Source of the DNA: a virus | Lineage: Duplodnaviria; Heunggongvirae; Uroviricota; Caudoviricetes | DNA: 5,783 nucleotides | Strand: one strand, 5' to 3' | Virus record (IMG/VR): IMGVR_UViG_2778261643_000011 | Notes under the pieces: generated by a model | Told to the model about the DNA's origin: nothing | Databases searched by the model: none | Seen by the model: the letters and a program-made list of their open reading frames with translations, nothing else | Position numbers and translations under genes: made by a program | In this document: positions 5,753 to 5,772 of the stretch, one piece after another | How the letters are laid out: every line of letters starts with the position of its first letter | Numbering within the stretch: position 1 is the first letter of the stretch

Positions 5753-5772
5753 TATCACTTAAATAAGTGATA
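5753..5772. promoter_or_regulatory. 20-bp perfect palindrome, candidate protein-binding site
   Basis: TATCACTT-AAAT-AAGTGATA: 8-bp perfect inverted arms with a 4-bp AT spacer, in noncoding DNA at the window edge. A dimeric DNA-binding protein site (operator or activator site) is the simplest reading; cognate factor unknown. Confidence 0.35.

Follow-up and report, generated by a model that had tools for sequence, protein, structure and literature searches.

Position of an inverted repeat at the edge of a P1/P7-like viral contig: the left end of IS2 and its probable promoter-operator

The window analyzed here, i.e., the whole stretch of 5,783 nucleotides taken from a viral record (IMGVR_UViG_2778261643_000011), carries an inverted repeat (dyad) close to its right-hand edge. 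In megablast alignments of window 5200-5783 against phage records, similarity to P7 (96.7%) and P1 (93.7%) reached only to position 5720, and the P1/P7-like stretch from 5200 to that point comprises the end of dmt, the bivalent C1 operator Oban and the dicF-like region. In the same search the remaining bases, 5721-5783, matched at 100% the insertion-sequence copies that interrupt nleG in Stx2 prophages, and the last 63 bases also matched the transposase region of phage phi456 at 100%. The matched records are annotated as insertion sequence 2, with orfA beginning 92 nt from the start of the match. Past ...ggggcc the sequence of P1 is unrelated, and the break thus falls exactly at the first base of IS2. 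The P1-like sequence that would be expected past the insertion site resembles ATCTGTTGGTCAGC..., and the bases GGGCC occupy window 5716-5720. The terminal sequence, which starts TAGACTGG..., fits the 42-bp left inverted repeat (IRL) of IS2.

Comparison with individual copies of the element gave the same assignment. The site is not phage DNA. The segment 5721-5783 is identical at 62 of 63 positions to nt 1-63 of the IS2A copy of E. coli K-12 (locus L004, 1261-1323), the sole difference being G for A at IS2 nt 32, just outside the dyad, and at 63 of 63 positions to the IS2 copy of the Stx2 phage. The K-12 annotation places IS2A at 381260-382590, a complete IS2 being 1,331 bp long, and has insC1 ("IS2 element protein InsA") begin at nt 92 of the element. 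The complete E. coli genomes, 5,426 in number, yielded 19,658 occurrences of the 63-mer, spread over 4,589 of them (median per genome, 3). Among viral contigs, the 20-mer that constitutes the dyad occurred exactly in 121 cases, of which 98 were forward IS2 left ends and about 21 were IS2 left ends on the opposite strand with a TT centre; only one lay in an unrelated, AT-rich context.

The junction 5720|5721 is equivalent to P1 NC_005856 69114|69115, in the leader of the C1-controlled ban operon. IS2 follows the dicF-like region and precedes the position that trnA, trnT ... ban occupy in P1; it is oriented in the direction of ban transcription, and the insertion could be polar on the ban operon. 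Searches of complete E. coli genomes, of phage records and of the best 5,000 plasmid matches yielded no public record that spans the P1-like/IS2 junction. Only 63 nt of the element are seen, and the contig probably ends at the window edge because assemblies break in repeated IS copies. The main value of the present assignment is a correct label for this edge, which is an IS2 insertion and not a phage regulatory region.

The features of the IS2 portion are collected in Table 1, in which nt 1 of IS2 corresponds to window 5721, such that the window covers IS2 nt 1-63.

Table 1. Features at the right-hand edge of the window, in window coordinates and in IS2 coordinates
Feature	Window position	IS2 position	Strand	Remarks
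First 63 nt of IS2 (IS3 family, IS2 subgroup)	5721-5783	1-63	+	P1-like DNA up to 5720
IRL, 42 bp, begins TA...	5721-5762	1-42	+	lengths and domains from PMC3299598
Dyad (inverted repeat), TATCACTTAAATAAGTGATA	5753-5772	33-52		spans inner IRL edge and PIRL; direct reading and repeat search of the window
Left arm, TATCACTTA	5753-5761	33-41	.	inner end of IRL
Published footprint, TTAAATAAGT	5759-5768	39-48	.	includes TAAATAA; PMC3299598
Centre, AA	5762-5763		.	non-symmetric, between the two dyad arms
Right arm, TAAGTGATA	5764-5772	44-52	.	just inside IRL, overlaps the promoter
PIRL, weak extended -10 promoter, TGATAGTCT	5768-5776	48-56	+	PMC3299598, PMC3219604
PIRL, TG	5768-5769		+	without -35 element; followed by A
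PIRL, hexamer TAGTCT	5771-5776		+	
orfA start codon	5812	92		29 bp outside the window; from full-length copies

The sequence-only reading had described the dyad as a 20-bp perfect palindrome. The repeat search of the window confirmed two arms of 9 nt each, 100% complementary and separated by a 2-nt spacer, and the 8-4-8 notation of that reading is correct. The central AA, however, is not self-complementary and breaks the symmetry, such that the reverse complement of the 20-mer differs from it at 2 of 20 positions. The centres of the two arms lie 11 bp apart, i.e., one helical turn. The additional statement that the repeat is too long and too perfect to be due to chance in 5.8 kb proved to be overstated: with a perfect inverted repeat of 9-bp arms and a spacer of 0-6 nt as the criterion, 62 of 400 shuffled versions of the window, made with dinucleotide composition preserved, contained an equally good repeat, and about 0.15 would be expected. 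The dyad is judged to be real because it is conserved, and not because it is statistically rare: the 20-mer recurs with identical flanks in thousands of IS2 copies, and diverged relatives retain the dyad.

The surmise that the repeat marks the control site of the next gene, lying outside the window, was borne out. In every full-length copy that shares the 63 nt, the promoter TGATAGTCT and orfA/insC (ATG at nt 92) follow the dyad; the palindrome is thus neither unique nor without a promoter and a gene after it. A ribosome-binding GGAG precedes the ATG of orfA in these copies, which also carry the frameshifted orfB, a right inverted repeat (IRR) ending in CA and a 5-bp target duplication. OrfA is a protein of the HTH_Tnp_1 family (PF01527, E 1.8e-19), and OrfB contains an rve integrase core. 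The pattern of an extended -10 promoter, TGnTAGTCT, is matched by TGATAGTCT at IS2 nt 48-56, and transcription from PIRL would start at about 5782-5784. When the IS2 left end and window 5200-5783 were scanned for canonical promoters with two hexamers, none was detected, a result that is consistent with an extended -10 promoter of the -35-less type and adds no independent support for it.

The two ends of IS2 are imperfect repeats of 41 and 42 bp (Lewis et al. 2012, PMC3299598), and the IRL is divided into an outer part, the cleavage domain, and an inner part, the protein-binding domain (PMC3299598). In our comparison of the IRL with the reverse-complemented IRR, two blocks, TCCAGACA and TATCACTTAA, were found in common. 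The IRR reads ...TTATCACTTAACCC in IS2 and in most of its relatives, and the left-arm half-site occurs there once. The right-arm half-site, in contrast, is absent from the IRR, such that the half-site is present twice, in inverted orientation, at the left end only.

The published work on IS2 provides a role for this arrangement. As described in PMC3299598, in the part that cites Hu et al. (1994, J Mol Biol 236:503), the 14-kDa OrfA protein acts as a repressor by binding immediately ahead of PIRL, the weak extended -10 promoter located just inside the IRL; this promoter was also described by Lewis et al. 2011 (PMC3219604). Published footprints put both the OrfA/InsA repressor and the transposase on nt 39-48, and the protected stretch includes the OrfA docking sequence TAAATAA (PMC3299598, legends of Figures 1C and 6 and discussion), and the TGAT at bp 48-51, which maps to window 5768-5771, was designated as the start of the extended -10 promoter (PMC3299598). 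Mapped to the window, the positions of both the footprint and the TGAT fall inside the dyad. The docking site is given in the relevant text of PMC3299598 as the central TAAATAA and not as two arms. Dimerization is mediated by OrfA residues 58-105, according to the statement in PMC3219604 that cites Lei and Hu (1997).

On this basis, the dyad is very probably the promoter-operator of IS2, inserted in the ban-operon leader of a P1/P7-like phage-plasmid. In the proposed mechanism, the helix-turn-helix N-terminus that is common to OrfA and to the transposase OrfAB would recognize the left-arm half-site, while the second, inverted half-site would cover the TG and the first -10 bases of PIRL, the promoter of orfA-orfB. 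A dimer of OrfA (InsA) placed on both arms would then block RNA polymerase, and IS2 would in this manner shut down the expression of its own transposase. The occupation of each arm by one OrfA monomer, together with promoter occlusion, is what we infer. Since the left arm also belongs to the transposase-binding domain of the IRL, OrfA probably competes with OrfAB for the left end. Binding, repression, footprints and dimerization are taken from the published studies, and the identity of the DNA, the coordinates, the conservation and the half-site in the IRR derive from the present analysis.

Conservation of the site was analyzed among relatives recovered by an OrfA search restricted to one genome per species, in which most of the elements were identical copies of IS2 and about 15 usable ones had diverged, with OrfA identities of 82-95%. 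In all of the diverged elements the dyad is retained, its distance from the IS end is unchanged, and the -10 hexamer follows it directly; this hexamer is TAGTCT in all relatives but one (TAATCT). Over 13 distinct IS2-type left ends, the arms are complementary at 90.6% of positions, and sliding the partner arm by 1-3 columns lowers the value to 25-50%. The two outermost arm positions are asymmetric in 3-4 of the 13. In the most distant relative, an Aeromonas element with 82% OrfA identity, the dyad has become CCTCTTAA-C-TTAAGAGG; both arms differ at two positions, and the half-site in its IRR is also altered, to CCCGCTTA. Such changes, as far as the sequences go, fit the expectation for a DNA-binding domain that co-evolves with its sites at both ends of the element, and the evidence for covariation is thin: the compensatory signal derives from a single lineage and 2 pairs, and 7 of 500 shuffles score as high. 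Compensatory changes would fit a nucleic-acid hairpin equally well.

The centre of the dyad differs among copies of the element. Many IS2 copies in Shigella and E. coli (loci L008, L010, L012 and others) carry a TT centre while encoding an OrfA that is 100% identical, and the TT-centre 20-mer is the exact reverse complement of the AA form, which is found in the window and in K-12. Among the genome loci, 24 AA centres were counted versus 37 TT, and among the viral contigs 98 AA versus about 21 TT. Both forms have multiplied, which speaks for the arms, in a symmetrical reading, as the decisive feature, and this would fit a symmetric dimer. The AA/TT flip is suggestive of one inversion or template switch, and not of two separate point mutations.

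A further structure with its junction at the dyad was observed in other sequences. It consists of two IS2 left ends (nt 1-42) that are joined head-to-head exactly at the dyad to form an 84-bp perfect hairpin. In full length it is present in 55 closed E. coli genomes, where it is located inside an IS4/Tn5-family transposase gene, as exemplified by L207 401-484 (NZ_CP029747.1 3590857-3590940); it was also observed in a viral contig (L191, IMGVR_UViG) on the reverse strand at about 580-665. No obvious 5-bp target duplication flanks the 84-bp hairpin, which could be either a MITE-like derivative of IS2 or a palindrome-mediated inverted duplication. It is conceivable, although rather unlikely, that the dyad, besides its part as the OrfA operator, is a hinge at which the DNA folds back and so influences how IS2 evolves. 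Were this the case, the AA and TT forms, their joint abundance with an identical OrfA, and the 84-bp hairpin would all be products of intrastrand hairpin formation or template switching, and the 84-bp structure could be MITE-like, and possibly mobilizable or a sink for OrfA.

A related explanation, in which the dyad is mainly a nucleic-acid hairpin, either as an RNA stem-loop in read-in transcripts (here from the P1 ban promoter) or as a DNA hairpin or cruciform in transposition or rearrangement, appears improbable. The RNA is predicted to fold into an 8-bp stem with a 4-nt loop (-7.6 kcal/mol, z = -2.75); the compensatory changes among the relatives, together with one G-U-compatible change, would suit such a structure, and the centre flip and the 84-bp hairpin of the 55 closed genomes suggest that the DNA folds back at least occasionally. 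However, the stem is AT-rich and weak, and it is followed by GTCTTAATACT, with no run of T. The ribosome-binding site is some 30 nt downstream of the dyad, which thus cannot sequester it, and being located upstream of the inferred start of PIRL transcription, it would be absent from the mRNA of IS2 itself. Moreover, a hairpin does not explain the lone, co-varying left-arm half-site in the IRR, and the published footprints of the protein cover the dyad (PMC3299598). Hairpin formation may at most be a side property of the site. An intrinsic terminator was rejected, as there is neither a G+C-rich stem nor a T-run, and the terminator scan was negative at the dyad and gave terminator-like sites only at 5458-5480.

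The sequence-only reading had proposed, by analogy with P1, that the repeat could be an activator site. In the case of P1 this would mean that Lpa, the phage activator, occupies the inverted repeat, with a -10 element following it, and turns on a late gene located past the window. The P1 late promoters are composed of a 9-bp -22 box (consensus AAGTGACTT, with the palindrome AAGTnACTT), 4 bp and TAnnnT. The host replicon is indeed P1-like, and the right arm together with the bases downstream of it (AAGTGATAG-tctt-AATACT) has AAGTGA in common with the -22 box; on a matrix built from the 10 standard-spacing promoters among the 11 late promoters annotated in the P1 record, the IS2 site ranks fifth of the 11,530 19-mers in the window. 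The score, in contrast, is only 7.8 bits, versus 18.1-21.2 for 9 of the 10 annotated P1 promoters (13.5-18.3 in leave-one-out), and even the atypical P1 promoter LPpmgL reaches 10.5 bits. AAGTGATAG fits AAGTnACTT at 6 of 9 positions, its right half being ATAG and not ACTT, and the hexamer found 4 bp further on, where the -10 would have to be, is AATACT, which does not conform to TAnnnT. The site lies inside IS2, past the end of the P1 homology, and is present wherever IS2 is, mostly in chromosomes. Further copies of the palindrome were looked for in P1, and none with up to 4 mismatches was found in the complete, 94.8-kb genome. The published role of the site is repression by OrfA and not activation. 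The activator proposal is very unlikely to hold.

The fifth-best late-promoter match, at 7.8 bits, reads AAGTGATAGTCTTAATACT and covers IS2 nt 46-64, of which window 5766-5783 supplies all but the last base. Its resemblance to the late promoters is probably a coincidence. The two types of site are alike in that both contain AAGTGA and have a short symmetric element close upstream of the -10 hexamer. They differ in that P1 combines a 9-bp palindrome with an activator, whereas IS2 combines a 20-bp dyad with a repressor and is not phage DNA.

The half-site TATCAC had also been noted for its resemblance to lambdoid repressor half-sites, a likeness that does not extend beyond the hexamer. The outer hexamers of the dyad, TATCAC and GTGATA, are identical to those of the lambda operator consensus as given in textbooks. 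Lambda operators are 17 bp long with hexamers 5 bp apart, whereas in the 20-bp dyad the hexamers are 8 bp apart, which, according to textbook geometry, would rotate the half-sites out of phase by about 100 degrees for a dimer of the lambda type. Furthermore, the site is single and forms no tandem operator array, neither a repressor gene nor cro is adjacent, and the next gene is orfA of IS2. An operator of the CI/Cro type is thus extremely improbable. A chance inverted repeat devoid of function is dismissed with equal firmness: although about 15% of the shuffled windows hold an equal repeat, the position of the dyad relative to the IS end and to the -10 is conserved down to 82% OrfA identity, compensatory changes included, and published binding data exist (PMC3299598).

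The preferred reading, i.e., a dyad that serves as the promoter-operator of IS2, agrees with the known left end of the element (Hu et al. 1994; Lewis et al. 2004, 2012) both in sequence and in coordinates from the IS end. Nothing material differs; the substitution at nt 32 and the junction with a P1-like replicon, absent from the searched records, are the only distinctions. The autorepression of the transposase promoter of IS2 by OrfA is itself already known and has been described since 1994.

Small repressors of this kind are known from other insertion sequences. In IS1, InsA is a small helix-turn-helix protein that binds the terminal repeat and represses the transposase promoter within it. 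Similarly, an N-terminal fragment of the IS30 transposase binds the terminal repeat and represses the transposase promoter located there, as mentioned in PMC3299598. These systems are like IS2 in that the DNA-binding module of the transposase alone occupies the promoter-bearing end, and they are unlike it in that their families and sequences are unrelated and in that the IS2 site is a dyad formed by an inverted inner half-site of the repeat. Within the IS3 family, IS911 and IS3 share with IS2 an orfA that encodes a helix-turn-helix and a leucine-zipper-like segment, as well as the frameshift into orfB that produces the transposase. The OrfA of IS911, in contrast to that of IS2, has no promoter-repressor function and modulates OrfAB complexes instead (PMC3299598).

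Several additional features were observed in the P1/P7-like part of the window. An inverted repeat with 16-nt arms (ATATTGCTCTAATAAA/TTTATTAGTGTAATAT) at 5266-5297 corresponds, by the annotation of P1, to the bivalent C1 operator Oban (formerly Op72ab), which overlaps the ban promoters. At 5458-5490, inside the "dicF-like region" annotated in P1, a strong terminator-like hairpin, TGCCCATCTTCGGGTGGGCG, is followed by T8. A search against Rfam at gathering thresholds detected no family, DicF included, and a tRNA scan of the window detected no tRNA, despite a GGTTCGATT motif near 5690.

Among the OrfA matches, four contigs of 558-1,543 bp (L043, L046, L051 and L069), from assemblies of Streptosporangium, Paenisporosarcina, Lamprocystis and Brevibacterium, encode an OrfA that is 95-100% identical to that of E. 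coli IS2. These contigs most likely represent contamination with E. coli DNA.
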